The notes below the pieces were generated by a model. That model worked only from the letters and a program-made list of their open reading frames with translations, ran no database searches and had not been told where the DNA came from. From Aciduliprofundum boonei T469 (GTDB taxonomy: Archaea; Thermoplasmatota; Thermoplasmata; Thermoplasmatales; Aciduliprofundaceae), in assembly GCF_000025665.1 (NCBI RefSeq), contig NC_013926.1, forward strand, positions 300,001 to 332,000: a stretch of 32,000 nucleotides of DNA, written 5' to 3'. Shown one piece after another: positions 1,636 through 31,306 of this stretch; position 1 is the stretch's first letter; each line of letters starts with the position of its first letter. The translations under genes were made by a program, and so were the position numbers.

Positions 1636-2213
1636 ATACGAGCATAATTTTCGCAGGAGTTGGAGGTCAGGGGGTGCTAACCGCATCGAGCATCGTGGGA
1701 AAGGCAGCTTTGCTATCAGGCATAAATGTGGTTATGAGCGAAGTTCACGGCATGGCCCAGCGTGGAGGAATCGTCGTGACTGAGATGAAAATCGGCGAGG
1801 CAAAGAGCCCACTCATAGGCAAGGGAGAGGCCGACATAATTGTAGGCTTCGAGCCCGTGGAAGCGTACAGGGCACTCCCCAAAGCGCATAAGGGAAGTTA
1901 TGTTATAGTTAATACCGAACCGATAATTCCAATAACTGCCTCTCTTGGAGATTCTTCCTATCCAGAAGTAAATGAGCTCTTGGAAAATATGAAGGACTTG
2001 AATGTTATACCCATAGAGGCCACGGAGCTCGCTAGAAAGGCGGGAGATTCTATAACAACGAACATAGTCATGCTCGGTGCCCTTGTAAAACTCCCAATAT
2101 TCCCTATAGAAAAGGAAAAAATAAAGGAGGCAATAAAGCAAAGCATAAATCCACGGTACCACGAATTGAACTTTAAAGCTTTTGAGATGGGCTACGAAGC
2201 TGTAGAGATTTAA
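1632..2213 (+). CDS. iorB: Indolepyruvate:ferredoxin oxidoreductase beta subunit
   Basis: 193 aa. N-terminal GVGGQGV loop typical of the gamma/IorB domain of 2-oxoacid:ferredoxin oxidoreductases. ATGA overlap with iorA at 1632-1635. Confidence 0.85.
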   Translation: MNTSIIFAGVGGQGVLTASSIVGKAALLSGINVVMSEVHGMAQRGGIVVTEMKIGEAKSPLIGKGEADIIVGFEPVEAYRALPKAHKGSYVIVNTEPIIPITASLGDSSYPEVNELLENMKDLNVIPIEATELARKAGDSITTNIVMLGALVKLPIFPIEKEKIKEAIKQSINPRYHELNFKAFEMGYEAVEI

Positions 2214-2719
2214 TACCTCTTATATTGTTTTTCTTCCATCTTTCTATTCCATAGGAGCAAAACAAATGCTATCACTACAATTATCATACCAAGGCAGCAA
2301 ACTCCACCAGATGCGTAAATACCGTACATAAGAGTATTCATCAAACTTTCCTCAGATATTAGAACCGCTACTTCTGCATCTGTGTTTTCATCATTCTTTA
2401 TAACCAACTCATATTGTCCGTTTGCATTGGTTATATTTATGGAGTACGCATTTGTATCATTTCCTTGAGATAACAATGTGCCATTAGGCGCATAAAATTC
2501 ATAGGATATATTGGTGGGAGAACTTATCAAAATGGAATAATTCCCAGTCAAATTTATGGATATGCTCTTGGAAGAATTAGCTCCTACCTTGATAACTTTA
2601 GTTTCTTTAATTCCGTTAGCATAAAATACACCTAAAATCACAACCGCAACCACGATTAGAATCACACCAATTAAGAGCAGAATTGTAGATTTTCGCATAA
2701 TAAAATATTGAATGCGCAT
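2210..2719 (-). CDS. Hypothetical bitopic surface protein: N-terminal TM/signal anchor, beta-rich ectodomain with several N-x-S/T sequons, C-terminal TM helix
   Basis: ATG at 2719 (alternative ATG at 2698). Hydrophobic stretches STILLLIGVILIVVAVVILGVF and GGVCCLGMIIVVIAFVLLLW. Sequons NSS, NLT, NYS, NIS, NGT, NDT, NIT. No family recognised. Confidence 0.6.
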   Translation of the reverse strand: MRIQYFIMRKSTILLLIGVILIVVAVVILGVFYANGIKETKVIKVGANSSKSISINLTGNYSILISSPTNISYEFYAPNGTLLSQGNDTNAYSINITNANGQYELVIKNDENTDAEVAVLISEESLMNTLMYGIYASGGVCCLGMIIVVIAFVLLLWNRKMEEKQYKRY

Positions 2720-4528: not shown

Positions 4529-4915
4529 ATGTCATGGAGCAAGATGAGGGAATACATATTGCACATAAGCTTAGCATTGTTCATTTGGGGTTTATACTGG
4601 ACAATAACAGGCGGGTACTGGGTATTACAATCCACAGGATTCATAAAAAAAGATCCGGGGATGGATTACTTAACCGCATGGGCAGGAGACTGGAACTACT
4701 GGTTCTTGATAATCGGTGTTTTTATAGCCATAGCAGGCGGATGGTATGTATTTGACACTCTCAGAAAAAGACTGAAATTTGAAGAGTATATAAACTCTGA
4801 GAGCAAAAGAGAATTTGTGAACAATCTTAGAGAACTGGAAGAAATATCATACAAGCTTGGAGAGAAGTATCAAAATAGGTTGGAAGAGAAAAAGAGAGAA
4901 TGGAGAGTAAAGTAA
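4529..4915 (+). CDS. Small membrane protein (2 TM helices + charged C-terminal helix), hypothetical
   Basis: The track ORF opens at GTG 4454, inside the upstream gene. ATG 4529 (or 4544) is more plausible. TM segments YILHISLALFIWGLYW and WFLIIGVFIAIAGGWYVF. Its 3' end overlaps the next gene's ATG by 16 nt. Confidence 0.55.
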   Translation: MSWSKMREYILHISLALFIWGLYWTITGGYWVLQSTGFIKKDPGMDYLTAWAGDWNYWFLIIGVFIAIAGGWYVFDTLRKRLKFEEYINSESKREFVNNLRELEEISYKLGEKYQNRLEEKKREWRVK

Positions 4916-6735
4916 TTTTTCTGGTTATTATCCTCCTTCTCATTCCGTATTCTCATGGAGAGATTGGAGAAAACGCTGCCAAGGAGCATCTTTTAATATA
5001 TGAAGCAAGCCCGTATCCCTACGCAAAAACAGATATGGAATATGTTTGCATTTTTAACCCATTAAATGTAAAAATAAATTTAAACGGTTATTTTATAACT
5101 GATTTTGAAGGTAAGCTTATTCTCCACGGCTCAATTACACCTAATTCAAAAATATACATAGCCCAAAATTCTTCATCTTTCCTTAACTTTATGGGTTTCT
5201 ATCCAAATTACACATACGCAGAGCTCAAAGATGGTAAATTCTCCCTAGCAAACAAGGGTGACGAAATTGCCCTTTACAACGGGTCAAAAATGGTGGACAT
5301 GGTGATTTATGGAAATTCAAAATACAATGGCACAGGATGGATTGGCAAGCCATTAAAACTAACCCAGGGACATATAATTAGAAGAAAAAATCTAATAGAT
5401 ACAAATACACCCAAAGATTGGAGCACATACCATGTAATAGGTCAAAGTGATTTTAAGCCAGAAGTATTCAAAGCATCTTTGGAAATATTTCCCTATCCTG
5501 ATAAATGGAAAGAGGTTTTGAGATTCACTAAAGAAGCAAAAAGCAAAATTCTCATAGAATCTTACACAATGGATAGCCTCGCCCTTGAAAAAGTGCTTGA
5601 AGAAAAATTGAAAGATGGTGTTGAAGTAAATATACTATTGGACGGCTCTCCAATCGGGGGCATTAAAGATTCGGAAAAATACATCTTGCAGAGGTTATAT
5701 TTAAAGGGTGCAAATATAAAATTCATGATCAACGAGCCCTCCAAAGGCATATACGACAGATACACATTCTTGCATGCAAAGTTCATAATAGTTGATGATG
5801 ATAAAGTACTTGTATCAACTGAAAATTTTGGAGATTCGTCCCTATCACCTTGTGGAAATAGGGGATATGGAGTTATAGTTAGAAACGAGAATTTTGCAAG
5901 GTACATGGTAAGGGTATTTTACGATGATTCTAAAAATGTAGAAGACATAGAGAATTATTCCGGCTATTTCCAAAATGTAAGTTTAGAGGAAAATAGAATA
6001 GAATTGCGAAGAGCAACATTTAGCAGTGTGAATCTCACCGCCTATATAGAGCCACTAATAGCACCCGATTTCTCATATGCTCTCTTCCAAAGCTTTGTAT
6101 CGGGGCAGAGAGACCTTAAAATAGAGGCTCTCTACATAGACAATAATGTTTGGAATATGTTGAAAAATAAAACATATCGAGCTTTAGTTCAATACAGAAG
6201 GGAAGGAGAGAATGCAAGGTTGTTTGATGGATACGAGCATTACATTCCATATCTACATGCAAAGCTGATTATCGGGGATTCTTCCGTACTTGTTGGAAGT
6301 ATGAACTTTGGAATATCCTCCATGCTTAGGAACAGAGAAGTATCCCTGATAATAAAAAGCAAAAATGCGGCAAATTATCTATCAAAAATATTTGATTACG
6401 ATTGGGACGGAAAATACAAGCCCATAATATTCGCCCATATAATTGAAGAGAAAAATGAGTTAACTATAGATTTATCAAAAAGCGTTGGAAATATAAAGGA
6501 CTACATAATTTATGTTGATGGAAAGAAAATTTATGAGACAAACGATGCAATTATTCACTTAAAATTAGGTTCGGGAGTTCATAAGATAAAAATCATTGCC
6601 ATAGATTACTGGGGAAATACTGCAAGTTTGGAGAAAAATGTAAAAATTGAAGGGAGTACATTTGATCCGAGACTCATAATACTCTTAGTATTTCTTGCAT
6701 TCTTCTTGTATGAAATTTGGAAGAATCATGGATGA
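4900..6735 (+). CDS. Surface-anchored phospholipase D superfamily protein: signal peptide + lamin-tail domain (LTD) + two HKD motifs + Ig-like domain + C-terminal TM anchor
   Basis: Signal peptide MESKVIFLVIILLLIPYSHG. LTD-like LLIYEASPYP...EYVCIFNP...INLNGYFITD...KGDEIALYNG...DMVIYG. HKD motifs LHAKFIIVDDDKVLVSTENFG (His at nt 5773) and LHAKLIIGDSSVLVGSMNFG (His at nt 6256). C-terminal LIILLVFLAFFLYEIW. Confidence 0.85.
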   Translation: MESKVIFLVIILLLIPYSHGEIGENAAKEHLLIYEASPYPYAKTDMEYVCIFNPLNVKINLNGYFITDFEGKLILHGSITPNSKIYIAQNSSSFLNFMGFYPNYTYAELKDGKFSLANKGDEIALYNGSKMVDMVIYGNSKYNGTGWIGKPLKLTQGHIIRRKNLIDTNTPKDWSTYHVIGQSDFKPEVFKASLEIFPYPDKWKEVLRFTKEAKSKILIESYTMDSLALEKVLEEKLKDGVEVNILLDGSPIGGIKDSEKYILQRLYLKGANIKFMINEPSKGIYDRYTFLHAKFIIVDDDKVLVSTENFGDSSLSPCGNRGYGVIVRNENFARYMVRVFYDDSKNVEDIENYSGYFQNVSLEENRIELRRATFSSVNLTAYIEPLIAPDFSYALFQSFVSGQRDLKIEALYIDNNVWNMLKNKTYRALVQYRREGENARLFDGYEHYIPYLHAKLIIGDSSVLVGSMNFGISSMLRNREVSLIIKSKNAANYLSKIFDYDWDGKYKPIIFAHIIEEKNELTIDLSKSVGNIKDYIIYVDGKKIYETNDAIIHLKLGSGVHKIKIIAIDYWGNTASLEKNVKIEGSTFDPRLIILLVFLAFFLYEIWKNHG

Positions 6736-7520: not shown

Positions 7521-7562
7521 ATATTTTAAACTTTTGCGAAGAATTACAATAACTTTTTTATA
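7521..7562. promoter_or_regulatory. Divergent promoter region: TATA-like boxes for speE (atattttaaa, 7521-7530, read on minus) and aglB (tttttata, 7555-7562)
   Basis: Each A/T box lies about 21-34 nt from its start codon (7500 and 7589). This is the spacing expected for archaeal TATA boxes driving leaderless or near-leaderless mRNAs. No experimental support. Confidence 0.3.
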
Positions 7563-7588: not shown

Positions 7589-10500
7589 GTGAGTAGCATG
7601 CTACGGAACAAATTTAAATTTGATATAAACAGAACAACAGTGCTTGTCGTTGTAGCTTTGGCATCTATTATGGCCTTGGGATTTTTTATAAGGGTGTACT
7701 GGGCCATAGGACCATCTATTCAGTACGGCTATTCTGTATCTGGCGGGTCTGATTCATACTATCATGAAAGAATCCTTAATTATATTCTCACATCTAAGCA
7801 TCAATTATTAAATGACCCTATGCTCAATTACCCTATGGGTTTAGATAACCCTAGGCCTCCCCTATTCCATTGGGCAATAATACTGGCCAGTATGATATTC
7901 TACCCGTTCCTAAACGCATACGATTCAGCAGTTCTTATGCTAATCCTATTTCCAGCAATATGGGGAACACTGACATTAATACCTGTATATCTGCTGGGTA
8001 AGGAAGCTTTCAACAGGAAAGTTGGATTGGTGGCTGCATTCTTCCTAGCCATAATGCCTGCAAACATAATGAGAAGTGTCGCCACTCAGGCAGACTGGGA
8101 TGCCTTTGATCTATTTTTCATAACTTGGATGTTCTATTTCTTCCTGATCGCTTTAAAAACAACAAAATCAAAGAACTGGATTAAAAACTGGTTCAATAAA
8201 GATGACCTCAAGCATGGGGTTTCAGTATTTATTAGAGAGAATAAAAAACCCATTGTCTATAGCGCCCTAGCAGGTGCTTCATTAGGCGCCCTTGCCCTAG
8301 CTTGGAAAGGATACACATATGCCCTCTCAATCTTAGCAATATATCTGGTTATCCAAGTTATAATAAACAGATTAAGAAACAGGTCCAATTTCCATATTTT
8401 AGTATTCACCGCCATATATACAATAGTTGGATTTCTAATGGCATTCCCCTGGTACTTTGTAACTCATAGGCTTGGTAGTTGGTATGAGATACCACTCATC
8501 GTAATACTTATTCCTCTATTCACAGCCCTATACTTTGAAATGACCTCAAAGTACCCGTGGCCCTTCGTATTCCTTGCAGGAGGCATAGGTTTTGGAGTAT
8601 TTGCCGTTATCCTAAATGTGTTCTTCCCAGATGTATGGGGCAAGCTTGTGAGCGGACAGGGCTATTTTGTGCATAGTAAACTATATTCAACCATTGCAGA
8701 GGCGCAGCCAGCAACTATGGGAGTCCTAAGCATGTCCTTCGGCATAGGCATATTCCTTCTATCCATCACCGGAGTTTTCTATCTCATCTACCTACTCAAA
8801 AAGAGGTTAAGCGAGCATTACATATTCTTCGTTATTTACACCAGCATAGCCATATTCATGGCAATTTCTGCAGCGAGGTTTATGTTTAATGCATCACCTC
8901 CTGTGGCGCTCACTGCAGCAGTATCTTTAATCTGGCTCATAGATCTGGTTGATATCAAAAAATCCATGGAAGAATTCAAGAAATATCGGGGCTCATGGAG
9001 AAAGGCATTGAAGAGAAATATAAAAATTTCTCAAATTACTGTAATACTCGTAATAGCATTTCTTGTGATATTTCCTACCGTTTGGTACGCTGTTGATGCT
9101 GGAATACCTTATGAAACCAAAGATAAATTCGACAAGCAAATATACAACAGCATGCCCTCGTTTATGAGACCCAATGAGACAACTTACAACAAATCGTCCC
9201 CATGGTATTTGGGAGCATTTGGCTATTCTATTCCAAAGCCAGAATATCCATGGCAACGGGCTTGGAAATGGTTAAGTGAGCAAGATAATTCTACGCCACC
9301 AAAGGACCGTCCTGCATTTCTTTCTTGGTGGGACTATGGATTCCAAGCTGTAGCACAGGGCAAGCATCCCACAGTGGCAGATAACTTCCAAGATGCTTAC
9401 AGATTCGCCGCCCAGGTTATAACGGCTCAAAATGAAAGTGAAGTGATCTCCCTATTCATCGCAAGATTTTTAGAGGCAGATTTCCACAAAAATGGAGGCA
9501 CATTGAGCCAGCCCATTATGAATGCCCTCATAAAGTATGCTGGGCAAGATAAAGCAAATAAAATTATTGATATTTTAAATGACCCAGATAAATACAGGAG
9601 AATAATAATTGAGAATCCACAAATATATGGACTTTATTCAAACGACATAGACTCTAAAAACGCCCTTTATGTGGCAATAAAGGGCACATTAGCATATCTA
9701 CCTCAAAATAAACTTATCTCAATGTATGATGCTATTAGAAACTCAACAGGATGGGATATAAGATACTTCGCCGTGGACTACCGTCTCTTCCCATTCTCCG
9801 GTATGAGAACAGGTATCTTCTATGCTCCTGCAAAGTTGGGTGATAGAAGAATATATCAGGCAGGAGGTACAGTGGTACCCTACGATTTCTACGACCTAAA
9901 AGCTGTGGATGCCAATGGAAATACTTATGATATAGATAAAGTACCTGCAAATGCCCAAATTGTGAGTTATAAAATAATTTACAAACCTATGTTTTACCAT
10001 TCTCTGCTATATCGCACCTTCATAGGTTATTCTGGAGAGGATATTGGTAAGGGAAATGGAATACCTGGATTCTCGCCAGATCTTGGAAGCTACCAACCTA
10101 TGCAAGCCTGGAACATGACACATTTCAAGTTGGTTTACAAAACAGCATACTGGAATCCGTATAAGGATTATAAAAATCACACCAAAGCATGGAAGCCCAT
10201 ACCAATAGAGCTGGCGTTGAAATATAAGAGAGAGGGAAAGGGTACTGTGGAATTGAACCCTCCTGCTTATCAAGTATTGCCCAACGATGTGGTAATTGTG
10301 AAATTCTACGAAGGTGCCGTAATACAGGGATATATAAGATTATCCACAGGAGAGCCTCTTAAGCATATAAGGGTGACTATTTTCGATGAATATGGTATAC
10401 CCCATGCTACAACTTTCACCAACGATACAGGATATTTCAAACTTCTATCTGTAGCAGGGAACATAACCTTGGTGGCATCTACAGATGGACATTATGATAA

Positions 10501-13500
10501 GCTAAGGATGATTGATAAAACAATTCTATATCACACCTTGATTAATGTAAGCCAAGAGCAGGCAATGCGCTTAAAACCCAATTTTGTGATCACAAAGAAT
10601 ATTACAATAAAACCCGCAACCCTCGATGGCGTTGTTTACTACGATATGAACCATAATAATAAATTTGATAAGGGAGATATAAAGCTCAATAATGCAACAT
10701 TTATTTTGGAGAACTCAACTTACGGTTACCATGTTTCTGTACCAATAAAGAACGGAGAATATCAGATTAAAGATATCCCACCACACGAATACAATGTGAA
10801 TTTGATTATAAATGGTAAAATGTTTAAGGATGTTGAAAAAGTTACACTCAATACAGGTATGGCTTTAACAAAAGATATTGCTCTTAAGCCATCATTCATC
10901 AAGGGTTCTGTTACATATACAAATGGCACACCTGCAGCAAATGCAACAATTAAACTTACTGGCTTATATTCAAAATATACGGCTCATACAGACCAGAACG
11001 GTAGCTTCAAAGTGCTTGTTGTGCCAGACAATTATACATTGGTCGCAAGCAAGCAGGATTATTACTCAAAGAAATTTGATGCTGCTGTTAGTAACTGGAA
11101 TATGACTGTGAATGAGAACATTACGCTTACAAAGGGATACACGCTCAGCGGCCATGTGGTTTACAATGGGGTGCCTATAGAAAGTGCAGTTGTGAAGGTA
11201 AAAAGTATAACTGAATACAATGTTTATATTGCTCAAACAGATAAAAATGGAGATTTCCGATTACACCTGCCGGGAGGGATATATACAATATACATACTCA
11301 CCACTTATCAAAATTACAAGATCGCCTATGTTGGCGTATTGTCTTTAAATCAAGATACTTCAAAAGTCATGAGAATGGAAAGAGCATACGCACTATATGG
11401 TAAAATTACATCTAAAGAAAAAACCGTTGGAGATATTGAGATCTCGCCCTTCAAAGGTGAGACTTTCTCAATGTGGTTCGCAAATCAGACTGGTTATTTC
11501 TATATATATCTCCCAGAGGGAACATACTCTATAGGATTCTTAGGATTTAACAATAGCTATAAGCCATTGTTCAGCAGGGCAATCATACATCTTAACAAGG
11601 ATACCGAAATAAATCCAATCTTGCAAATGGCAGAGACAATAAAAGGCTATGTATATGCGGGTAAAAATCAAACACTAAAGAATGGGGTAGTTATGCTGAA
11701 AGATGATAAGGGTTATTATGAAGTACGCAGCATACCCCCAGACGGAGAATTTACCCTGGGCTCAACAATAAATTATCAGTTGGACGCATTGGTATATGGA
11801 TATCATATAACCAAAGTATACACCCAAGGAAACAAAAAGATTATAAAAGCATCTCCAAATGAGGTGGAAATTAGAGGAAATATCTATGTGAACAATGCAA
11901 CAAATAGAGTGCCTTTGACAATTAAGTTTATATCTTCTAACAGAACATACACATTAACACATGTGATTGAGAGATATTCTATAAAAGTCTTGCCAGGAGA
12001 TTACACAATCGAAATTGTAGGTAACAACATAGAATATGTCTATGGAAAAATAGTGGCAAAGGCAGAGGTTGGCGAGGCACTGTTACAAAAGGACCTTCAC
12101 ATAAAGGCGCTCGCCCATGTGAATATAGTTTCTCAGGCGGATGTGGTTTACTGGTATCAAAATGGAACATTGGTGAAAACTGGAAAGGTTGTGGATATTG
12201 CCCCTGGAACATACACATTGTATTTAAGAAATTATGAGAATGCAAGGATAGTAAGAGTAAGTATAACACAAAATACCACTATTGAGGTAAATCTTAAAAG
12301 TGCTCACTTTGTAAATATAAAGCAAGAGAACTTCACCTACATGCTCCCAGTTAAAATATCCTCCCCTGCGGGAAATATCACATGGAAGACCCCAACAATA
12401 GCATTGCCTGCTGGGCATTATACATTTACCATAAAGGTAAAGAAGATGGTCTGGGGTAAATATTATCTCTATTTCAGTCAAGTTGATGAATACATAAGCG
12501 GCACAACTACCATAGTGTTGCATGTAACTACAACTCAGATCCTATCCAAGGTATCTGGCATTGTAACAATTGATAACCGTGGAGCTGCAAATGCAATAAT
12601 AAAATTCGTACCTTCAAATTCTGAGTTGCAAAATGTAACCGTTACCACAGATTCAGCTGGATATTATACAGCAAAACTAACTCCAGGAGATTATATGGTC
12701 TATTCATACTATGTGATGGGTGGTAAAAAGTACGCTTATATTGGAGAGATAAATGCTCAAAATTCCCAGAACCTCAATATTGAATTCCAAAAGGGCTACT
12801 TGCTCTACGGTGGAGTGTATCTAAACAACTCAAAGGTCTCAGTTATGGTAAATATAGAAACTCCTTACGGCACACTTAGTTATAAGGCAAATGGATACTA
12901 TTATGCAATACTCCCTCAAAACAATTACACGGTAAGTGCCAGCACATACCGTATAGAGTATGGACAAAAAGTAGATTACAAATTCACAAAGAAAGTTAAT
13001 CTCACGGCAGATACCTCTTTGGATGTTAGGCTTCAAAGACAGAATGTGCATATGATTACCGTTGATATATTGGGTTATGATAAGAATGTAGAGCCCTACA
13101 AGAATATGTGGATGTTAGTCAAACTTAAGAACACTGGAAACTCTCCTGAAAATGTTAAATTCGAGGTATTTGGACAGTGGAAGATAGTCAATCCACAGAG
13201 CTATAAAATGATACCTGGAGATGTTAAAGTCGTGAGTTTGGGTCTTAAAGTGCCTTTAATCAAAGCTGGAGATAACGAAGTGCATCTAAGGGTTAAATAT
13301 ACACAGTTCACAGACAAGTACTTCCATGTGAATGTGGCAAAGTACTATAATACCTCAGCAAATTATTCCCTCGTTTCTTGGAATGAAAATGCCCTCATAT
13401 ACAGAATAAAGGTTACGAACAATGGAAATACCTGGGTAAATTACACATTCTCTGTTCTCAATTCTAAGGAGCTGGAGACGAGGGGATGGGTCGTCAAAAT

Positions 13501-13819
13501 CTATGGGAAGTTGGGCGAAACAAATCATCTTAATGTATCTTCTAACAGCGAGGGTTCTATAGAGGTAAGAATAGAAGCAACAAAGAGTAGACCAGGCACC
13601 TCTGTGCCGGTACAGATTGTGGTAAAGGGAATGGGCAAGAGCATCCTAGTAAACCTGCCTCTGAAAGAAACATACATTAAAACATCCTCAGTTTACATCC
13701 AAGCTCCAGGAATTACAAACTACACATCCTTTGAAATGCAATCTTCCTGGTATGTTCTTTGGGGCCTTACAATTGCAACCTTCGTGGCGTTCATAATATT
13801 CTGGAGGTGGAAGAAGTGA
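7589..13819 (+). CDS. aglB: Archaeal oligosaccharyltransferase AglB (STT3 family) with a C-terminal multi-beta-sandwich extension of about 1180 aa and a terminal TM helix
   Basis: Multi-pass N-terminal membrane domain with GGSDSYYHER in the first loop. WWDYG motif at nt 9326-9340 (aa 580-584). From about nt 10290 there are at least nine CarboxypepD_reg-like modules (e.g. TNDTGYFKL, TDQNGSFKVLV, TDKNGDFRLHLPGGIYTI, TDSAGYYTAKLTPGDYMV), then two CARDB/NEW3-like modules, then WYVLWGLTIATFVAFIIFWRWKK. Start is GTG 7589 or ATG 7598. Confidence 0.9.
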   Translation: MSSMLRNKFKFDINRTTVLVVVALASIMALGFFIRVYWAIGPSIQYGYSVSGGSDSYYHERILNYILTSKHQLLNDPMLNYPMGLDNPRPPLFHWAIILASMIFYPFLNAYDSAVLMLILFPAIWGTLTLIPVYLLGKEAFNRKVGLVAAFFLAIMPANIMRSVATQADWDAFDLFFITWMFYFFLIALKTTKSKNWIKNWFNKDDLKHGVSVFIRENKKPIVYSALAGASLGALALAWKGYTYALSILAIYLVIQVIINRLRNRSNFHILVFTAIYTIVGFLMAFPWYFVTHRLGSWYEIPLIVILIPLFTALYFEMTSKYPWPFVFLAGGIGFGVFAVILNVFFPDVWGKLVSGQGYFVHSKLYSTIAEAQPATMGVLSMSFGIGIFLLSITGVFYLIYLLKKRLSEHYIFFVIYTSIAIFMAISAARFMFNASPPVALTAAVSLIWLIDLVDIKKSMEEFKKYRGSWRKALKRNIKISQITVILVIAFLVIFPTVWYAVDAGIPYETKDKFDKQIYNSMPSFMRPNETTYNKSSPWYLGAFGYSIPKPEYPWQRAWKWLSEQDNSTPPKDRPAFLSWWDYGFQAVAQGKHPTVADNFQDAYRFAAQVITAQNESEVISLFIARFLEADFHKNGGTLSQPIMNALIKYAGQDKANKIIDILNDPDKYRRIIIENPQIYGLYSNDIDSKNALYVAIKGTLAYLPQNKLISMYDAIRNSTGWDIRYFAVDYRLFPFSGMRTGIFYAPAKLGDRRIYQAGGTVVPYDFYDLKAVDANGNTYDIDKVPANAQIVSYKIIYKPMFYHSLLYRTFIGYSGEDIGKGNGIPGFSPDLGSYQPMQAWNMTHFKLVYKTAYWNPYKDYKNHTKAWKPIPIELALKYKREGKGTVELNPPAYQVLPNDVVIVKFYEGAVIQGYIRLSTGEPLKHIRVTIFDEYGIPHATTFTNDTGYFKLLSVAGNITLVASTDGHYDKLRMIDKTILYHTLINVSQEQAMRLKPNFVITKNITIKPATLDGVVYYDMNHNNKFDKGDIKLNNATFILENSTYGYHVSVPIKNGEYQIKDIPPHEYNVNLIINGKMFKDVEKVTLNTGMALTKDIALKPSFIKGSVTYTNGTPAANATIKLTGLYSKYTAHTDQNGSFKVLVVPDNYTLVASKQDYYSKKFDAAVSNWNMTVNENITLTKGYTLSGHVVYNGVPIESAVVKVKSITEYNVYIAQTDKNGDFRLHLPGGIYTIYILTTYQNYKIAYVGVLSLNQDTSKVMRMERAYALYGKITSKEKTVGDIEISPFKGETFSMWFANQTGYFYIYLPEGTYSIGFLGFNNSYKPLFSRAIIHLNKDTEINPILQMAETIKGYVYAGKNQTLKNGVVMLKDDKGYYEVRSIPPDGEFTLGSTINYQLDALVYGYHITKVYTQGNKKIIKASPNEVEIRGNIYVNNATNRVPLTIKFISSNRTYTLTHVIERYSIKVLPGDYTIEIVGNNIEYVYGKIVAKAEVGEALLQKDLHIKALAHVNIVSQADVVYWYQNGTLVKTGKVVDIAPGTYTLYLRNYENARIVRVSITQNTTIEVNLKSAHFVNIKQENFTYMLPVKISSPAGNITWKTPTIALPAGHYTFTIKVKKMVWGKYYLYFSQVDEYISGTTTIVLHVTTTQILSKVSGIVTIDNRGAANAIIKFVPSNSELQNVTVTTDSAGYYTAKLTPGDYMVYSYYVMGGKKYAYIGEINAQNSQNLNIEFQKGYLLYGGVYLNNSKVSVMVNIETPYGTLSYKANGYYYAILPQNNYTVSASTYRIEYGQKVDYKFTKKVNLTADTSLDVRLQRQNVHMITVDILGYDKNVEPYKNMWMLVKLKNTGNSPENVKFEVFGQWKIVNPQSYKMIPGDVKVVSLGLKVPLIKAGDNEVHLRVKYTQFTDKYFHVNVAKYYNTSANYSLVSWNENALIYRIKVTNNGNTWVNYTFSVLNSKELETRGWVVKIYGKLGETNHLNVSSNSEGSIEVRIEATKSRPGTSVPVQIVVKGMGKSILVNLPLKETYIKTSSVYIQAPGITNYTSFEMQSSWYVLWGLTIATFVAFIIFWRWKK

Positions 13820-14589
13820 AGAAAATAATTAGTGTTCTTCTATTTACCCTCCTATTTGTTACATTCATACCCACGGGAGCACACGCATCCCAACTGAGTA
13901 TACACATAGATGGGCCCACCGTACTGGGAACAAATCAAACTGCTCAATACAAAGTTTATGTGGAAGGATACTTCCACCTATTCAGATGCGGTATTATAAT
14001 GAGTGGATATAATCTTACAGGAGCAAAACCCACCAATTTCTTTGTAACATCAAGTGATAATGGACATTTTGTATTCAATGTCACCGCACCCAATGTGCCT
14101 CAAACGATATATCTCTACTTTGAAGCCTATGGAATGAAAAACTCAACCACTATAGGAGCAAGAGCTTCAAGGGAGTTAAGCATACAAGTGAAAAAGGCAA
14201 TGGATATAAAGGTCAAAATAAAAAATACGGAGGATTACGACCTTTACAATACCGTCTTATCTTTCTACCTAGATGGCAGGTATATTGGAAATACAACAGT
14301 AAATGTCATCAAAGCAAATTCAACCAAGGATGTTGTTTACAAGTGGATACCAAACGGACTATACGATGGAGAACATACTCTCACAGTTAAGATCTCTGGA
14401 AAAGGCGTTGTATTTGAAAATGACCAGCAGACATACCAATACAAATTCTACTATGGGACTCCACCATCATACGATTACATAACATATATGAGTTGGGGTC
14501 TGCTAATTATCGTATCCACCCTATTTGCCCTGTTTTTCCTGGGTAAAAAAGGAAAAAAGAGTGGCCCCGCACCAAAGTGGAAAAAATAA
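13816..14589 (+). CDS. Secreted, C-terminally anchored protein with CARDB/Ig-like domains, hypothetical
   Basis: The track ORF opens at TTG 13759, inside aglB. GTG 13816 gives a clean signal peptide VKKIISVLLFTLLFVTFIPTGAHA and overlaps the aglB stop (GTGA). CARDB-like IKVKIKNTEDYDLYNTVLSFYLDGRYIGNTTV...HTLTVKI. C-terminal TM WGLLIIVSTLFALFFL plus a basic tail. Confidence 0.65.
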   Translation: MKKIISVLLFTLLFVTFIPTGAHASQLSIHIDGPTVLGTNQTAQYKVYVEGYFHLFRCGIIMSGYNLTGAKPTNFFVTSSDNGHFVFNVTAPNVPQTIYLYFEAYGMKNSTTIGARASRELSIQVKKAMDIKVKIKNTEDYDLYNTVLSFYLDGRYIGNTTVNVIKANSTKDVVYKWIPNGLYDGEHTLTVKISGKGVVFENDQQTYQYKFYYGTPPSYDYITYMSWGLLIIVSTLFALFFLGKKGKKSGPAPKWKK

Positions 14590-19069: not shown

Positions 19070-19675
19070 TTATCGTATTATTTTAGCATCTAGCACCACG
19101 CAATCATTTTCTCTTGCAAGCACAGGGTTTAAGTCCATACCCTCCACATCAGCGTTCTCCTCAACAAATTTTGAAACTTTGAGAAGCAATTCAATTATAG
19201 CCTCCTTGCTTACCCTTACTCCCCTATACCCTTCCAGTATTTTTCTGCCCTTTATTTCATTAAGCATAAGCTCGGCATCCAAGCGGGATATTGGTATGAC
19301 CCTGAAAGTCACATCTTTGAAAACCTCCGTAAATATGCCACCGAGACCAAACATTATGGCATGCCCGAAAGTGGGGTCTTTTGTTACGCCAACAATTACT
19401 TCCAAACCTCCAGAGAGCATCTCCTCAACTAAAACGGGTGAGGAGAATTTTTCCATCAAAATTTTTACTTTTTCCTTTAATTCCTCTTTATTCTTTATGT
19501 TCAAAATAACTCCCCCAACATCGCTCTTGTGCAGTATTTTCTCGCTTGCAACCTTCGCTACTACAGGGTAATTCAAATCCAAATTATATATCTCTCTCAA
19601 ATCATTTATCAATGCTCCTTCTGGAACTTTTATTCCATAATCTTTCAGCAAGAGCTTTGCTTCATACTCATTCAT
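19070..19675 (-). CDS. acdB: ADP-forming acetyl/acyl-CoA synthetase, beta subunit (ATP-grasp)
   Basis: 201 aa. EYEAKLLLKDYGIKVP...YPVVAKV...HKSDVGGV...FGLGGIFTEVFKDVTFR...NPV. ATGA overlap with acdA at 19672-19675. Confidence 0.85.
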   Translation of the reverse strand: MNEYEAKLLLKDYGIKVPEGALINDLREIYNLDLNYPVVAKVASEKILHKSDVGGVILNIKNKEELKEKVKILMEKFSSPVLVEEMLSGGLEVIVGVTKDPTFGHAIMFGLGGIFTEVFKDVTFRVIPISRLDAELMLNEIKGRKILEGYRGVRVSKEAIIELLLKVSKFVEENADVEGMDLNPVLARENDCVVLDAKIIR

Positions 19676-21066
19676 TCCACTCCCTCCAGATATTCCAACA
19701 ATTTTGCCCTATATCTCAACACCCTCAGAGCTTTTACACTTCTCTCAATACTTGGATACACGGGAACCTTGTTATCCTCAAACTTGCGCATCATTCTCAA
19801 TGCGAACTCGCTTCCTATGGTGCCAACAACAATTGGCTTATCGCCTTCCCTATGCCATTTTGTAATTATATTTACCAGTTTTTCACTTATAAGAGGAGTC
19901 TGGAATAGTGCATAAACCAATATGGCATCAACATTAGGATCATCGTTTAATGCGGCGAGAACTCCATCGTAATCATCATCACTTGCCTGAGCAGTCATAT
20001 CTACAGGATTCTCTACAGAGGCAAAAGGCACCACCTCATCCCTTATTCTCCTCTTTATTTCATCGCTCAATTCTGCCATCTTCATCCCTATCCCTCGCAC
20101 CTCGCTCTCAATGTAATCCGTTGTAACAACTCCAACTCCCCCAGCAGATGTGACCACTGCTATCCTATCACCCTCTATTGGTTTTCCATATGCAAGGGCT
20201 CTAGCATAATCCACAAGCTCTATCTCATCATAGGCCCTTATAACCCCACATTGCTTGAAGGCCCCATCTGCCACGGCATCGCTTCCACCTAAAGCCCCCG
20301 TGTGCAAACTCGCCGCCTTTCCACCTCTCTTGGTTCTTCCTGCTTTGAGCACAACTATTGGCTTTTTCCTGCTCACATTCTTAGCTACTCGCATAAATTC
20401 TCTGCCATTGGCGAAGCTCTCAATATACATTATGATAACTTTGCTCTTTTCATCCTCTCCAAAATACTGGAGCAATTCATTTTCATTCACATCCACTCTA
20501 TTGCCCAAATTTATGAACGAGGAGAATCCAACATCGTACATAGAGACAGAATCCATAGTGAGCAATCCCAATGCTCCACTCTGAGTTATGAAAGCAATAT
20601 CTCCATCACCTGGAAATCTCGAGCGTTCAGGTACTACGAGAGCAGTGTTTACTCCCGTGCTGGGAATATAAATGCCAACGGTGTTTGGCCCTATAATCCT
20701 CGCATTGTACTTCTTTGCAATCTCCAAAATTTTTCTCTCTCTTTCTTTTCCCTCCTTTCCTGTCTCTCCAAATCCTCCTGCGATGGGGATTATGAACTTG
20801 GATTTTTTAGCAACATCCTCAAAGATCTTAACTGTAACTTCTGCAGGAAGGGTGATAACACTCAAATCAACTTCCTCGGGCACATCATTTATGGAAGGAT
20901 ACACCTTAAATCCGAGAATCTGGCCACCCTTTGGATTCACAGGATATATTCTTCCCCCGTAGCCATTATTTTTAAGGTTCTCAAGAACAACATAGCCTAT
21001 CTTGTTGGGATGTGATGATGCACCCACGACAGCAATACTATCTGGCGAGATAAGCTTATCAAACAT
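19672..21066 (-). CDS. acdA: ADP-forming acetyl/acyl-CoA synthetase, alpha subunit (CoA-binding / succinyl-CoA-synthetase-like)
   Basis: SIAVVGAS...YPVNPK...GPNTVG...ITQSGA...ASLHTGALGGS (phospho-histidine loop). 464 aa. Confidence 0.9.
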   Translation of the reverse strand: MFDKLISPDSIAVVGASSHPNKIGYVVLENLKNNGYGGRIYPVNPKGGQILGFKVYPSINDVPEEVDLSVITLPAEVTVKIFEDVAKKSKFIIPIAGGFGETGKEGKERERKILEIAKKYNARIIGPNTVGIYIPSTGVNTALVVPERSRFPGDGDIAFITQSGALGLLTMDSVSMYDVGFSSFINLGNRVDVNENELLQYFGEDEKSKVIIMYIESFANGREFMRVAKNVSRKKPIVVLKAGRTKRGGKAASLHTGALGGSDAVADGAFKQCGVIRAYDEIELVDYARALAYGKPIEGDRIAVVTSAGGVGVVTTDYIESEVRGIGMKMAELSDEIKRRIRDEVVPFASVENPVDMTAQASDDDYDGVLAALNDDPNVDAILVYALFQTPLISEKLVNIITKWHREGDKPIVVGTIGSEFALRMMRKFEDNKVPVYPSIERSVKALRVLRYRAKLLEYLEGVE

Positions 21067-21121
21067 AAAAGGGAAATAAAATAAAAAGTTAAATAAATTG
21101 CCTGAGATGTCTTAGCAAGAT

Positions 21122-23257
21122 TTAACTGCACTTATCCAGTGGCTTTGGTGTTACCTTCGTGGATTTTCCTGTTTTCAGGATTATCCTTGCATCCACTACA
21201 CTTAGGCCTTTCTCGTAAACTATAACTGGATTAGCATCCACTTCTTTTATAACATCTCTGAAATCCCAAACAAGCTGGGATAACCTGCTAACCGCTTCTG
21301 CTATTGCTTCAATGTCCTTGGGTTTCTCACCGCGTGCTCCCTTCAATATTCCATAGCCATTTATTTCCTTGACCATATCAAGTGCCTCATCCTTGCTGAA
21401 TGGTGCTATACGGAATGTTACATCCTTCAAAATTTCCACAAATATGCCACCGAGGCCGAACATAACAGTTGGTCCAAATTGAGAATCATTGATACTTCCA
21501 ATAATTGTCTCCGTACCCCATGGCTCCATATGCTGCACATAAACACCCATGATTTCCGCGTGAGGATCGTAGCGCTCTGCATTCTCTATAATCTCTTGGA
21601 AGGCCTTGCGCACTTCATCATCATTCTTTATATTCACCTTTACACCGCCTGCATCACTTTTATGCACTATATTTGGAGAGACTATTTTCATTACCACAGG
21701 ATACTCAACTGCACGGGCAATCTTAACGGCCTCCTCAGGATTCCGAGCCATCTTACCCTTTGGAATCGGCAATCCATAGGCGGCAAATACCTCCTTCGCT
21801 TCGGGCTCAGTGAGTAAGCTTCTTCCGCATGCCTTGGCCTTGCCTATTATTGCCTCCACTTTCTCCTTGTTAACCTTATAAGGTACAAATTCCTTTGATG
21901 CTTTTTCCAAGTATCTTCCATAGGTTCTGAGGGCTGCAAGGGCTCTAACGGCTGCATGTGGACTATTGTAGTAGGGTATTCCATTCTCTATGAGCCATTC
22001 TCCCGCTTTCACGCTTCTCTCTCCGCCCACTAAACTAACTGCAATGGGCTTATCCACACCACTATCCTTATAAGCCTTGTAAATTCCCTCAGCAATATTT
22101 TGAGGATCCGTGAAGGATGTTTCGCAATAAAGCACAACCACTCCATCAACCCAGTCATGCTTCAAAGCATCCCTTATTGAACCCTCGTATTCAGGCCTAT
22201 CGGCCATGCCAGTTAAATCCACAGGGTTTTTCGGATTTCCAAACTCTGGCATATGCTTAAACATGAGCAATTTTAGGTCATCTGGTGCATCCTTTATTGG
22301 CACTCCATACTTCTCAGCAGCATCTGTAGCTAGAACTCCTACGCCACCACCATTGGTTATTATGAGAAGATTATCTCCCCTCATTGGCTTCTGCAAGGCG
22401 AGAGCCATTGTCTCATCAAATAGAGCATCTAGATTTTCGGCCCACACAACATGACCCTGCTTGAATGCTGCCTCATATATCTTCGTGCTTCCAGCCAAAC
22501 TTCCTGTATGGGATGCTGCTGCAGCTGCACCACGCTTTGAAGTGCCTGCCTTAAGCGCAATTATTGGCTTCTTTGAATTCTTACAGGCGTTTAGGAATTT
22601 GCGTCCATCCTTCACACCTTCAATGTAGAGAGATATGACATTTGTGTCCTCATCCTTGTTGAAGTAATTGATTAGGTCTCCAAAATCCAAATCTGCCATG
22701 TTTCCAATACTTATCATATGTGAAATGCCAACTTTATCAACCCAAGTCCTTGCATCCATTGCTATTAGCAAAGCACCACTTTGGGATATCATTGCTGCCT
22801 TCCCAGGATATGGCAAGTATGGGCCAAAGGATGCATTCATATGAAGCGGGTTATTCATTATACCCACGACATTCGGACCGAGGATGCGCATCCCGTATTT
22901 GTGGGCAATATCCACAACCTCTCTCTCCAAATCCTCTCTGCCAACTTCGCTAAAGCCAGAAGCTATTATAACAAGGCCTTTAACTCCCTTCTTTCCACAT
23001 TCTTCCGTAACGGCAGGCACAAGCTTTGCAGGTACAACTATAAGGGCAATATCCACCTTATCAGGAATGTCCAAAACACTGTGATAGCATTTGAGCCCTG
23101 CAACTTCATCTGCCTTGGGATTTACAGGATAAATCTTGCCCTCATAGCCTGAGTCAATGAGATTCTTAACGCATTGATGTCCTATGGCCTTTGGATCACG
23201 ACTTGCTCCGACGATTGCTATACTTTTCGGCTTGAATATTGGATCTAAATTCTCCAT
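21122..23257 (-). CDS. ADP-forming acetyl/acyl-CoA synthetase, fused alpha-beta single-chain form
   Basis: 711 aa. The N-terminal ~460 aa is paralogous to acdA (SIAIVGAS, YPVNPK, GPNVVG, ASHTGSLAGS). The C-terminal ~220 aa is paralogous to acdB (EPEAKEVFAAYGLPIP, HKSDAGGV, FGLGGIFVEILKDVTFR). GGAGGT RBS 7 nt upstream of the ATG. Confidence 0.9.
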   Translation of the reverse strand: MENLDPIFKPKSIAIVGASRDPKAIGHQCVKNLIDSGYEGKIYPVNPKADEVAGLKCYHSVLDIPDKVDIALIVVPAKLVPAVTEECGKKGVKGLVIIASGFSEVGREDLEREVVDIAHKYGMRILGPNVVGIMNNPLHMNASFGPYLPYPGKAAMISQSGALLIAMDARTWVDKVGISHMISIGNMADLDFGDLINYFNKDEDTNVISLYIEGVKDGRKFLNACKNSKKPIIALKAGTSKRGAAAAASHTGSLAGSTKIYEAAFKQGHVVWAENLDALFDETMALALQKPMRGDNLLIITNGGGVGVLATDAAEKYGVPIKDAPDDLKLLMFKHMPEFGNPKNPVDLTGMADRPEYEGSIRDALKHDWVDGVVVLYCETSFTDPQNIAEGIYKAYKDSGVDKPIAVSLVGGERSVKAGEWLIENGIPYYNSPHAAVRALAALRTYGRYLEKASKEFVPYKVNKEKVEAIIGKAKACGRSLLTEPEAKEVFAAYGLPIPKGKMARNPEEAVKIARAVEYPVVMKIVSPNIVHKSDAGGVKVNIKNDDEVRKAFQEIIENAERYDPHAEIMGVYVQHMEPWGTETIIGSINDSQFGPTVMFGLGGIFVEILKDVTFRIAPFSKDEALDMVKEINGYGILKGARGEKPKDIEAIAEAVSRLSQLVWDFRDVIKEVDANPVIVYEKGLSVVDARIILKTGKSTKVTPKPLDKCS

Positions 23258-30700: not shown

Positions 30701-31306
30701 GGTGCTACATGGTCCAATACCCTTACATCTACCGACCAGAGCAACCTTGAAACTTACCTCAATAACGGTGGCGCTCTATACCTATCCTCCCAGGACTTCT
30801 TGTACGATCTCACGGGCGGATGGGACGAATCCATATCCAATACATTCGTAACCAACTATCTTGGCGTGGATTATGTAGCCAATGATGTGCAGTATAACAG
30901 CGTGGCAGGGGTGTCTGGCACATTCGTGCAGTCATTTACATCCATCTCCCTATCTAACTACCCGTTCACCAACTACGATGATGAACTCGGCCTTAGCTCT
31001 TATGGCCACGCTCTGTTCTATAACCCCTCCGATAACTATGTTACTGGAGACTATGTACAGACATCCACTTATAAGACCGTATTCACTGCTTTCTCATTCG
31101 AAGCTGTGGAAAATACTGACTCCTCTACCGGCAATGCTCTCCTCAAAGCAATCATTGACTGGCTTAGCGGAGAAACAACTTCAATACAGGGAGATATACA
31201 AATACCAATGAGCTTCTCAGACCACAGTGAAAATAATTTGGATGTCTTCAACAATGCTCCAATAATCCACGCACCGGAAATCGCTGCCATATTTAGATCT
31301 TTCTAA
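27707..31306 (+). CDS. Secreted S53 (sedolisin/kumamolisin-type) serine-carboxyl peptidase with propeptide, Ig-like domain, two FN3 domains and a C-terminal alpha/beta domain
   Basis: Signal peptide MKKERSLYGLILVMASIMIFSALSVTVFASSAQA. Pro-kumamolisin-like activation domain. Catalytic motifs ENELDLEM (E312/D316), SNSWGG, ASSGDDGD, AGTSVACP (Ser535, nt 29309-29311). FN3 repeats at aa 744-939. GGTGG SD 8 nt upstream of the ATG. Confidence 0.9.
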   Translation: MKKERSLYGLILVMASIMIFSALSVTVFASSAQASNAIPISSGFNPKLIHDGTFIGYANENQKIWVTIGLKWKNEESLNLFLKEVNDPSSPNFGKYLTYKEFKNKYAPSPVIYNKVIQWIKSKNVHIEYTYGLRNAIVLHDTIGKIGNLLGVRFGYFKSNSPNYNKEYFAAMNEPKIPAYLKPYISGINGLNNATKFKLNYYTASSGIDYLSGADVAKMYQVYQLYNNTPDGSASTHHIFATGLRVATVLWEGADSWGDQYAPFDPNAITYYYQHVIPTWIQNLGVMSTVHYYGTSGTVAPGSNTDGSVSTENELDLEMVGTLAPGVDAFCVYGPGGSSGGPSESNFPDNEYNYILNTLASESSPILVAVSNSWGGGDSQESSTTMNDVKALEAMGVTVMASSGDDGDTTSPSEPSTAAYDTYGFLAVGGTTPVPNGVDHTTLDDYATMGNNTDLANPRSSEIVWYDSSSTNSAGDHWGTQSGVSSVYAEPSWQSNYIGSYSGRVTADISAMGNHTLIYVSSSSGTQWSAVAGTSVACPVTAGMVAMMDAYIGVEYGVSNHGLGFLNPIIYKLGYDYYHNGKFANSPPYYDVTQGATGGGGSASTGWDQVSGWGVINAWNFIHDIGFTINASSTSASINAGESASYTLNIAYPYDWTTDVGHFEVSGLPSGATASFSSNYVHPSGNGASSSLTLTVQTSSSTPSGTYTLTFMAYTYNHTTGHWGNLTNSIQLTLTVGSGGSNPTAPSAPQNLQASAGNGYVLLNWQAPSNNGGASITEYKIYRGTSSGGESYLAEVSGTTLSYNDTSVTNGNTYYYYVTAVNSAGESSASNEVSATPQSSVTAPSAPQNLQATAGNGYVLLNWQAPSNNGGASITNYKIYRGTSSGGESYLAEVSGTTLSYNDTSVTNGQTYYYYVTAVNSAGESPASNEVSATPQAPPSPSSLKILLVDDDGGQNYQTYFTQALDADGYSYDVWDVSSSGSPSASTLENYNVVIWTTGATWSNTLTSTDQSNLETYLNNGGALYLSSQDFLYDLTGGWDESISNTFVTNYLGVDYVANDVQYNSVAGVSGTFVQSFTSISLSNYPFTNYDDELGLSSYGHALFYNPSDNYVTGDYVQTSTYKTVFTAFSFEAVENTDSSTGNALLKAIIDWLSGETTSIQGDIQIPMSFSDHSENNLDVFNNAPIIHAPEIAAIFRSF
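29936..30514 (+). repeat. Tandem direct repeat, 2 x 294 nt, encoding two fibronectin type III domains inside the S53 peptidase gene
   Basis: Copy 1 begins at 29936 and copy 2 at 30230. Hand alignment: 4 aa differences in the 95 aligned residues, and a 65-nt perfectly identical run (gcaggtaatggttatgtgctcc...agtattac). Confidence 0.9.

Follow-up and report, generated by a model that had tools for sequence, protein, structure and literature searches.

A giant AglB oligosaccharyltransferase of Thermoplasmata with a predicted doubly anchored beta-sandwich extension and a probable translationally coupled partner

We analysed a stretch of 32,000 nucleotides from Aciduliprofundum boonei T469 (NCBI RefSeq assembly GCF_000025665.1, contig NC_013926.1, positions 300,001 to 332,000 of the forward strand), which is referred to below as the window and in which positions are counted from its first letter. 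It encodes a giant form of AglB, the archaeal oligosaccharyltransferase (OST), in which a core with the expected catalytic motifs runs on into 13 predicted beta-sandwich domains and a transmembrane (TM) helix that anchors the far end of the chain, and the gene overlaps that of a small membrane protein, here called the partner. We regard it as highly likely that the architecture, the topology and the gene pair are as described here. As to function, we favour, tentatively and at somewhat under an even chance, the reading that the extension is a built-in, glycosylated and doubly anchored extracellular scaffold and that AglB and the partner make up a two-polypeptide OST assembly.

An earlier note, made from the sequence of the window alone, had described an open reading frame (ORF) of 2076 amino acids (aa) at 7589-13819 whose first ~900 residues are an AglB/STT3 with SDSYYH in its first loop and WWDYG at residues 580-584. 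The ORF listing and a motif search bear this out, and on its motifs and predicted fold the N-terminal part is a genuine AglB/STT3 OST (GT-C fold, CAZy family GT66) whose catalytic motifs appear intact. The Pfam family STT3 matches residues 19-322 with 66.9 bits (cut-off 24.5), hydrophobic segments in the hydropathy profile span residues 18-498, and the helices of the core in an AlphaFold (AF2) model agree with 13 TM helices. This model covers residues 1-1000, thus including the first extension domain, D1; it was built with 60 homologues in the alignment and has a predicted local distance difference test score (pLDDT) of 89.0 and a predicted template-modelling score (pTM) of 0.84. The top Foldseek matches of the core are to Archaeoglobus fulgidus AglB-L (7e9s/3wak, E 2e-25, TM-scores 0.58/0.66), followed by eukaryotic STT3 and bacterial PglB, with the eukaryotic OST structures 6ezn and 6s7o also among the matches. 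By sequence, the nearest PDB chain is again A. fulgidus AglB-L, 875 residues long and matching residues 48-617 (E 2e-14). D55 of SDSYYH aligns with the GGNDPWY of the A. fulgidus enzyme, D169 and D171 align with its NDHH, and T368-I-A-E371 aligns with its TIAE. WWDYG is unchanged in all 121 sequences compared (the query and 120 homologues). In a set of 61 sequences D55, WWDYG and both the T and the E of TIAE are 100% conserved, followed by D171 (96%), R430 (95%) and D169 (83%). The candidate DK/MI region reads VD730YR732LFPF...YAPAK749L, with D730 at 100%, R732 at 96% and Leu at position +3; the spacing differs, and from the alignment a canonical DxxK could not be placed. The domain of residues 506-904 is the most conserved part of the protein, with a mean identity to the query of 54%. 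The protein falls below the cut-off of the archaeosortase A-associated AglB subfamily, the model TIGR04154 (archaeo_STT3) having reached 248.4 bits where 450 are required, and over residues 22-618 only.

The enzyme is covalently continuous with a long all-beta extension that bears its own TM anchor, as had been claimed, and this is seen both in the ORF and in a second AF2 model. The earlier note had suggested modelling this region, and the model of residues 880-2076 is confident (pLDDT 87.8, pTM 0.52), all beta from about residue 910 to 2024 and ending in a single helix at residues 2052-2075. Grouping of the strands in this model gives 13 domains, D1-D13. The extension had been read as at least nine CarboxypepD_reg-like modules followed by two CARDB/NEW3-like ones. 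The repeat array stands, and the family labels hold only in part. The Pfam family CarboxypepD_reg (PF13620) scores 115.8 bits on the whole protein (cut-off 32.3) in four stretches, namely, D1, D3, D4 and D10; when the domains are scored singly, D1 (36.0) and D3 (45.9) lie above the cut-off while D4 (31.9) and D10 (24.6) lie below it. An iterated internal profile ties together eight clearly related modules. D2 is weakly SdrD_B-like in Pfam, D11 has a sub-threshold match to BT_3987-like_N (E 0.004), and per-domain Pfam scans of D5-D9 and D12 gave no call, though all of these fold as beta-sandwiches in the model. For D12-D13 there is no direct Pfam match to CARDB (PF07705), D13 matching only the Ig-like FixG_C (E 2e-4), but the pair aligns with the profile of the partner family, which is CARDB, with an hhalign probability of 95.9% (E 6e-9). 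Foldseek against the PDB returned generic tandem beta-sandwich arrays only (E 1e-13 to 1e-7), including alpha-2-macroglobulin/complement MG domains, BaTIE and Cna-B stalks, and DSCAM; since the TM-scores are 0.07-0.20, the likeness is at the level of the repeat only. An alpha-2-macroglobulin or complement C3-like identity was considered and rejected, the TM-scores being 0.07-0.10 with a root-mean-square deviation above 35 Å and the model having no helical domain. Pfam matches of this type are faint (bMG3 E 0.17, MG4 E 0.08).

In the established topology of AglB, PglB and STT3 the domain that follows TM helix 13 is extracytoplasmic. With 13 TM helices and a basic N-terminus inside, the same would hold here for this domain and for the extension, and an extension outside the cell, whose chain re-enters the membrane through a 14th TM helix to leave a basic tail inside, is strongly supported. 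A cytoplasmic extension, which had been named as an objection, does not fit this topology. The C-terminal hydrophobic segment (residues 2053-2071) and the RWKK tail after it are as previously noticed, and they are preceded by a linker whose pLDDT is below 50 at model residues 1150-1172 (residues 2029-2051). Since the 14th TM helix would return the tail to the cytoplasm, the extension would be tethered to the membrane at both ends. Of the 121 sequences, 97% end in a hydrophobic stretch and a basic tail, as does every complete giant locus. Archaeosortase/PGF-CTERM processing of the C-terminus was rejected, as no NCBIfam sorting-signal model matched the whole AglB, its C-terminal 267 aa or the partner. 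There is no cysteine anywhere in the 2076 residues.

The two parts are separable in architecture, and shorter AglBs without an anchored array occur in the same phylum, so that the chain might be thought of as a polyprotein that is cleaved into an AglB of normal size and a C-terminally anchored surface glycoprotein of ~1170 aa. We consider this very improbable. The junction between core and D1 is structured, with a pLDDT of 81-94 over residues 880-905 within the model of pTM 0.84, and the core is predicted to run into D1 without a flexible linker. The structured junction and the conservation of D1, which is like that of the core, argue against loosely joined or cleaved halves. The core/D1 boundary is neither low in confidence nor poorly conserved, the only disordered segment is the one before the final TM helix, and no protease domain or recognisable processing motif was found with Pfam and NCBIfam.

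The protein has 40 N-x-S/T sequons. Exactly 30 of them lie after residue 900, where about 30 had been counted by hand; 29 of these are in D1-D13 and the last, N2044, is in the linker. From composition 13.3 would be expected after residue 900 (standard deviation 3.2), none of 20000 residue shuffles reached 30, and a control with the reversed motif gave 13 occurrences, matching chance. Across the 121 sequences the extension has a median of 2.34 times the expected number of sequons, and the sequon columns at residues 958, 986, 1042, 1148 and 1299 are occupied in 54-70% of 61 sequences (the query and 60 homologues). Since the extension is sequon-enriched and is predicted to lie outside the cell, it is very probably N-glycosylated and thus itself an OST substrate, as the earlier note had suggested, and the glycans are presumably attached by the catalytic domain of the same chain or of copies nearby. 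The richness in sequons is not distinctive of this protein, however. Per 100 aa the extension has 2.55 sequons. The other ORFs of the window that are predicted to encode membrane or exported proteins have 1.2-4.1 and the cytoplasmic ones 0-0.9, and the density therefore marks an extracellular location and not a special property. The highest density in the window, 4.1 per 100 aa (7 observed and 2 expected), belongs to a 169-aa membrane protein (2210-2719, minus strand) for which no Pfam or NCBIfam match was found.

Judging from the sequences compared, the giant AglB is the standard form of the OST across the class Thermoplasmata. A word-indexed protein search gave 488 matches, and the best 120 of these were studied in detail. 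They are 2045-2250 aa long except for two truncated entries, they are 29-89% identical to the query over mostly 94-100% and in some cases 49-66% of its length, and their sources include Aciduliprofundum sp. MAR08-339, Thermoplasmata, Methanomassiliicoccales and Ca. Saliniplasma. In a scan of one genome per GTDB species, relatives are encoded in at least 580 genomes. Among the best 80 loci of that scan 64 have an intact 3' end, and 62 of the 64 are uninterrupted giants with 1461-1634 aa after WWDYG. One of the other two (L019) is a frameshifted giant whose contig ends soon after. The second (L033, on a 677,964-bp contig of a Methanomassiliicoccaceae metagenome-assembled genome (MAG)) has a single in-frame TAG at nucleotide 13035, beyond which the frame continues to ~2150 aa with a normal TM helix and basic tail. 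Methanomassiliicoccales encode pyrrolysine, and this TAG could be a pyrrolysine or read-through codon, a sequencing error or a nonsense mutation.

When the AglB core alone was used in a HMMER search, 1543 cluster representatives were found, 299 of them at E≤1e-30. Most of the top ~110 are 2028-2775 aa long, with shorter, unanchored entries among them that look like fragments. Anchored sequences have 1470-2078 aa after WWDYG, the sole exception being a 1442-aa form with 874 aa. A remoter tier, 1096-1290 aa long, lacks the C-terminal anchor and continues for 530-700 aa past WWDYG, and its named members are Thermoplasmatota or broadly labelled euryarchaeal MAGs. In members of 2334-2775 aa (P0156, P0166, P0167, P0188, P0221, P0227, P0251, P0252 and others) WWDYG lies further along the chain, at residues 700-820, so that ~100-240 aa would have been inserted within or ahead of the membrane domain, and up to 2078 aa follow the motif. 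Mean identity to the query is 46-54% in the core, 45% in D1, 34-36% in D2-D3, 24-28% in D4-D9, 31% in D10-D11 and 25-28% in D12-D13, with 18% in the linker (the lowest value) and 25% in the C-terminal TM helix. Between orders the identity of the extension is only 20-30% despite its near-constant length.

The unusual length by itself could suggest a mis-assembly, a missed stop or frameshift, or an artificial fusion of two genes, and the earlier note had wanted a mis-assembly or a missed stop to be excluded. The chance of such an artefact is now negligible. Over 100 protein clusters and over 60 independent assemblies, among them the closed genomes CP003168.1, OY970070.1 and CP070748.1, have the same continuous ORF architecture, which excludes a missed stop or a chimeric assembly, and the GC content along the gene stays inside the range of the remaining window. 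The earlier note had also said that its reading would fall if related genomes proved to encode equally long, already described fusions as a rule. Long relatives are indeed commonplace, at 2028-2775 aa, but no paper describing them was found: a full-text literature search gave no description of the giant form, the second anchor or the partner, and specialist surveys of AglB phylogeny may mention the length. Public annotations of the giants are inconsistent ('peptide transporter', 'glycosyltransferase family 39', 'carboxypeptidase regulatory-like domain-containing protein', 'STT3 domain-containing protein'), and because of this and of their length, surveys that filter by either could miss them. 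Thus, the sequences have long been public under mixed names while the architecture seems to be undescribed.

The strongest clue to a defined complex is the partner gene, which the earlier note had overlooked. Its start is almost certainly the GTG at 13816 rather than the listed one at 13759. After a signal peptide the protein has two beta-sandwich domains and then a TM helix with a basic tail, and it belongs to the Pfam family CARDB (PF07705; 39 bits, cut-off 22.7). In its pair of CARDB-like sandwiches, its TM helix and its basic tail the partner mirrors the end of the giant from D12 onwards. A homologous ORF of 237-272 aa starts -10 to +41 nucleotides from the AglB stop in 60 of the 64 loci, with a 4-nucleotide overlap in 32. 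These 60 are all the loci that can be assessed, since the other four (L019, L033, L032 and L044) are disrupted genes or contig ends; in L032 and L044 the end of the contig alone accounts for the missing partner. In five loci of distant homologues a partner homologue of ~250-270 aa, 21-75% identical, is in the same place and the remaining neighbours differ. Some homologues are flanked by glycosyltransferase genes, and the partner is the sole neighbour that is kept across orders. The partner also follows the anchored 1442-aa form with an ATGA overlap (profile E 1.5e-24). No partner was found within ±4-5 kb of four unanchored Thermoplasmatota AglBs of 1150-1290 aa, a range that is shorter on one side for L090 and L094, where the contig ends. 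A search with the partner profile found stand-alone proteins only, of 242-265 aa and at best annotated 'CARDB domain-containing', and the protein of the window is 100% identical to one in assembly GCA_026995975.1. Translational coupling of the partner to AglB is strongly supported by this arrangement of the genes. In one Methanomassiliicoccales genome (L002/L003, 15448-15771) a gene for a 107-aa thioredoxin that weakly matches the Pfam family OST3_OST6 comes after the AglB-partner pair. OST3/6 are thioredoxin-like subunits of the eukaryotic OST, and the match is probably mere similarity of the thioredoxin fold.

That the scaffold would be integral to the OST is suggested by the near-fixed length at low identity, by the rigid and conserved D1-D3 beside the catalytic domain, and by the partner, which mirrors the modules next to the anchor and tracks the anchor. 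We propose that the extension and the partner would form a defined, membrane-proximal extracellular scaffold, an arch or a cage, that is built into the enzyme. The membrane-proximal CARDB-like modules and the TM helices of the two proteins would pair, the conserved D1-D3 would pack onto the catalytic domain, and the assembly would stabilise, space and shield the active site of the OST in the envelope. Its function would be analogous, not homologous, to that of the single-TM beta-sandwich subunits of the eukaryotic OST or of the NOMO rod. Such a scaffold and hetero-complex role of the extension and the partner is a possibility that we put slightly on the doubtful side. The stricter form of this proposal, in which the OST of Thermoplasmata is a dedicated two-polypeptide holoenzyme, made of a 14-TM AglB with 13 sandwiches and a co-translated CARDB-type subunit that together form a fixed arch or cage over the active site, is rather unlikely as it stands.

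Several results weigh against the scaffold. The pTM of the extension model is only 0.52, and the overall shape, whether arch, rod or compact, is not fixed by it. The C-terminal TM helix is poorly conserved, and its 25% identity is more easily reconciled with a simple anchor than with a specific interface between helices. The length of the family reaches 2775 aa, so that the number of domains is not strictly fixed, and no partner adjoins the one 2775-aa variant that was examined (P0252, L095); the partner profile matches the C-terminus of this variant (E 5e-8). The 4-nucleotide overlap and the conserved adjacency speak for co-expression, not for physical association. Finally, Pfam scans gave no match to ribophorin I, DDOST/OST48 or OST3/OST6, with E up to 1 for AglB and up to 0.01 for the partner.

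The last result bears also on a different role for the array, with or without the partner, in which it would act as a binding site for unfolded polypeptides on export or for the lipid-linked glycan, or would dock the OST onto the Sec translocon, as the equivalent of ribophorins, OST48 and OST3/6. The accessory subunits of the eukaryotic OST are likewise lumenal beta-sandwiches with one TM helix, the partner is a single-TM protein with two sandwiches, and the most conserved domains of the extension, D1-D3, are those that adjoin the catalytic domain. However, Pfam scans show no similarity to OST accessory, lectin or carbohydrate-binding module families, 13 domains far exceed the needs of a binding platform, and the characterised AglB and PglB work as single subunits. 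We consider such a role in substrate or glycan handling improbable.

It could be argued instead that the extension serves the envelope or glycocalyx first and the enzyme second, being a structural coat, a spacer of a pseudo-periplasm, an S-layer anchor or a ruler that is fused to AglB for co-localisation and for efficient glycosylation in cis. The earlier note's self-glycosylating scaffold is of this kind, and both it and the note's other suggestion, that the extension positions the OST in the envelope, are plausible. If this is the case, the sequon enrichment with its conserved sites, the membrane anchor at both ends and the fold class, which is that of transthyretin/Cna-B/SdrD-B-like stalks with BaTIE and Cna B-repeat stalks among the Foldseek matches, would all be accounted for, and a length range of 2028-2775 aa is what one would expect of an adjustable ruler. 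Furthermore, the envelopes of Thermoplasmatales are reported to be mostly wall-less or S-layer-poor (PMC5155288, PMC3750248), so that membrane glycoproteins would form the surface. However, a coat protein that is fused to an enzyme could not exceed that enzyme in copy number, the length is near-fixed in most lineages at 20-30% identity, and D1-D3 are conserved like the core. In addition, there is no flexible hinge at the core/extension junction, the sequon density is not above that of the window's other exported proteins, and the dedicated, coupled partner would be left unexplained. We take this explanation seriously but think it rather unlikely, and the scaffold built into a two-polypeptide OST is the reading that we prefer.

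Textbooks present the OSTs of archaea and bacteria as enzymes of one subunit, and a multi-subunit OST is taken to be a eukaryotic elaboration. The giant AglB calls the picture of a single-subunit archaeal OST into question, because a class-wide AglB with ~1170 fused external residues, a second anchor and a coupled partner would show that complex OSTs also arose in archaea. If true, the two-polypeptide holoenzyme would be the first OST of a prokaryote to have an accessory subunit committed to it and an independent, convergent counterpart of the ribophorins, OST48 or NOMO beside STT3 and the translocon, and it might bear load in a wall-less envelope. The giant AglB also offers a handle on the way in which the glycoprotein surface is organised in Thermoplasmata, which are mostly wall-less and exposed to acid and heat; the wall-less or S-layer-poor state is presumed also for the acid- and heat-exposed Aciduliprofundum/DHVE2 lineage. 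Thermoplasmata also include the Methanomassiliicoccales of the human gut and the rumen. The unanchored forms of ~1.1-1.3 kaa (thousand amino acids), the anchored form of 1.4 kaa with its partner and the anchored forms of 2.0-2.8 kaa make a natural series for the function of the accessory mass.

The features of the locus are given in Table 1. The N-termini of the homologues align at Met4 of the query, and the true start of AglB is therefore probably the ATG at 7598, which gives 2073 aa. The TATA-like element in front of it is a possible archaeal promoter of the gene, and its distance from this ATG would imply a short or absent leader. The neighbours of AglB in the window are genes for a spermidine synthase, an exported PLD/LTD protein and an M50 protease, and the window is collinear with Aciduliprofundum sp. 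MAR08-339 over ~22 kb. No agl gene cluster is present in the window, and this genomic setting was therefore rejected; Rfam and tRNA scans of the window gave no matches. The exported PLD/LTD protein (4900-6735, plus strand; 611 aa) begins with a signal peptide and ends in a TM anchor, has a lamin-tail domain and two PLD/HKD domains, and looks like a surface-anchored nuclease or phospholipase. Its gene is two genes upstream of AglB, with the spermidine synthase gene between them on the opposite strand, and the placement is the same in MAR08-339. Further away, at 27707-31306 (plus strand), is a gene whose 1199-aa product is secreted and combines a Pro-kumamolisin activation domain (sedolisin-type protease) with two FN3 repeats that are nearly identical. 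Unlike the window's other exported proteins it is depleted in sequons (9 observed, 20 expected), the GC content of the region is 0.42-0.47 against ~0.37 elsewhere in the window, and the gene may have been acquired recently. At 19070-23257 (minus strand) are two adjoining gene sets of the ADP-forming acyl-CoA synthetase type, one split (a CoA-binding/ligase protein of 464 aa and an ATP-grasp protein of 201 aa) and the other a fused 711-aa form.

Table 1. Features of the giant AglB locus, in positions of the window
Feature	Position	Strand	Basis or remark
TATA-like element, A/T-rich, TTTTTTATAG	7553..7562	+	read by eye; ~36-45 nt upstream of ATG 7598
Giant AglB oligosaccharyltransferase gene	7589..13819	+	ORF listing: GTG start, 2076 aa
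GT-C membrane domain, aa 1-505, ~13 TM helices	7589..9103	+	hydropathy, AF2 helices, motif conservation, Pfam STT3
Catalytic D55 in SDSYYH (aa 54-59)	7748-7765	+	motif search, alignment
TIAE motif, aa 368-371	8690-8701	+	motif, alignment
Extracytoplasmic catalytic/peripheral domain, aa 506-904	9104..10300	+	Foldseek, conservation
WWDYG, aa 580-584	9326-9340	+	motif search
13 tandem beta-sandwich domains D1-D13, aa ~905-2026	10301..13666	+	AF2 model, Pfam, internal profile
D12-D13, CARDB-like	13019-13666	+	hhalign match to partner family
Low-confidence linker between D13 and C-terminal helix, aa 2027-2051	13667..13741	+	pLDDT, conservation
14th TM helix, aa 2052-2071, and basic cytoplasmic tail WRWKK	13742..13816	+	AF2 model, hydropathy
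Partner gene, 257-aa type-I membrane protein	13816..14589	+	GTG start overlaps AglB TGA stop (GTGA); listed ORF 13759..14589

Among known systems, A. fulgidus AglB-L (3WAJ/3WAK/5GMY/7E9S) has in common with the giant the 13-TM GT-C fold, the Asp of external loop 1 (EL1), the second acidic motif, the TIxE of EL5, WWDYG and an external domain of mixed alpha/beta structure. It ends ~325 aa after WWDYG and is regarded as a single-subunit OST, whereas the giant adds ~1170 residues in 13 beta-sandwiches, a 14th TM helix and a coupled partner gene. The two are only ~16-17% identical, and no canonical DK/MI motif could be placed in the giant from its sequence. The Gram-positive stalks (Cna B, SdrD B, SpaA) and the MG arrays of alpha-2-macroglobulin are of the same fold class as the extension, but the extension is without a thioester or other helical domain, and NCBIfam showed no sortase or archaeosortase signal, whether for the whole protein or for the C-terminal 267 aa alone. 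The eukaryotic OST subunits ribophorin I/Ost1, OST48/Wbp1 and ribophorin II/Swp1 likewise consist of non-cytoplasmic beta-sandwiches, a single C-terminal TM helix and a short basic tail, and accompany an STT3-type subunit. There is no detectable sequence homology to them, the accessory mass of the giant is mostly fused to the catalytic chain, and any equivalence in function is putative.

NOMO, too, is a long tandem array of transthyretin/CarboxypepD_reg-like Ig-fold domains with one C-terminal TM helix and a short tail. It is the beads-on-a-string rod of the Nicalin-TMEM147-NOMO complex in the lumen of the endoplasmic reticulum (ER) (PMC8327139, PMC7505659), and it sits beside the protein-translocation machinery in a compartment that is topologically equivalent to the archaeal exterior. 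The NOMO models of Pfam match AglB weakly (NOMO_5th E 0.0049, NOMO_3rd E 0.047), both under the 27-bit cut-off, and weak matches are found in homologues as well. NOMO has an anchor at one end only and no enzyme joined to its chain, whereas the giant is anchored at both ends, and no orthology is implied. BaTIE is the best structural match reported for NOMO (PMC8327139), and the extension of the giant resembles BaTIE as well. NOMO sets the width of the ER lumen (PMC8327139), and this is a parallel for an extension that acts as a spacer in the envelope.

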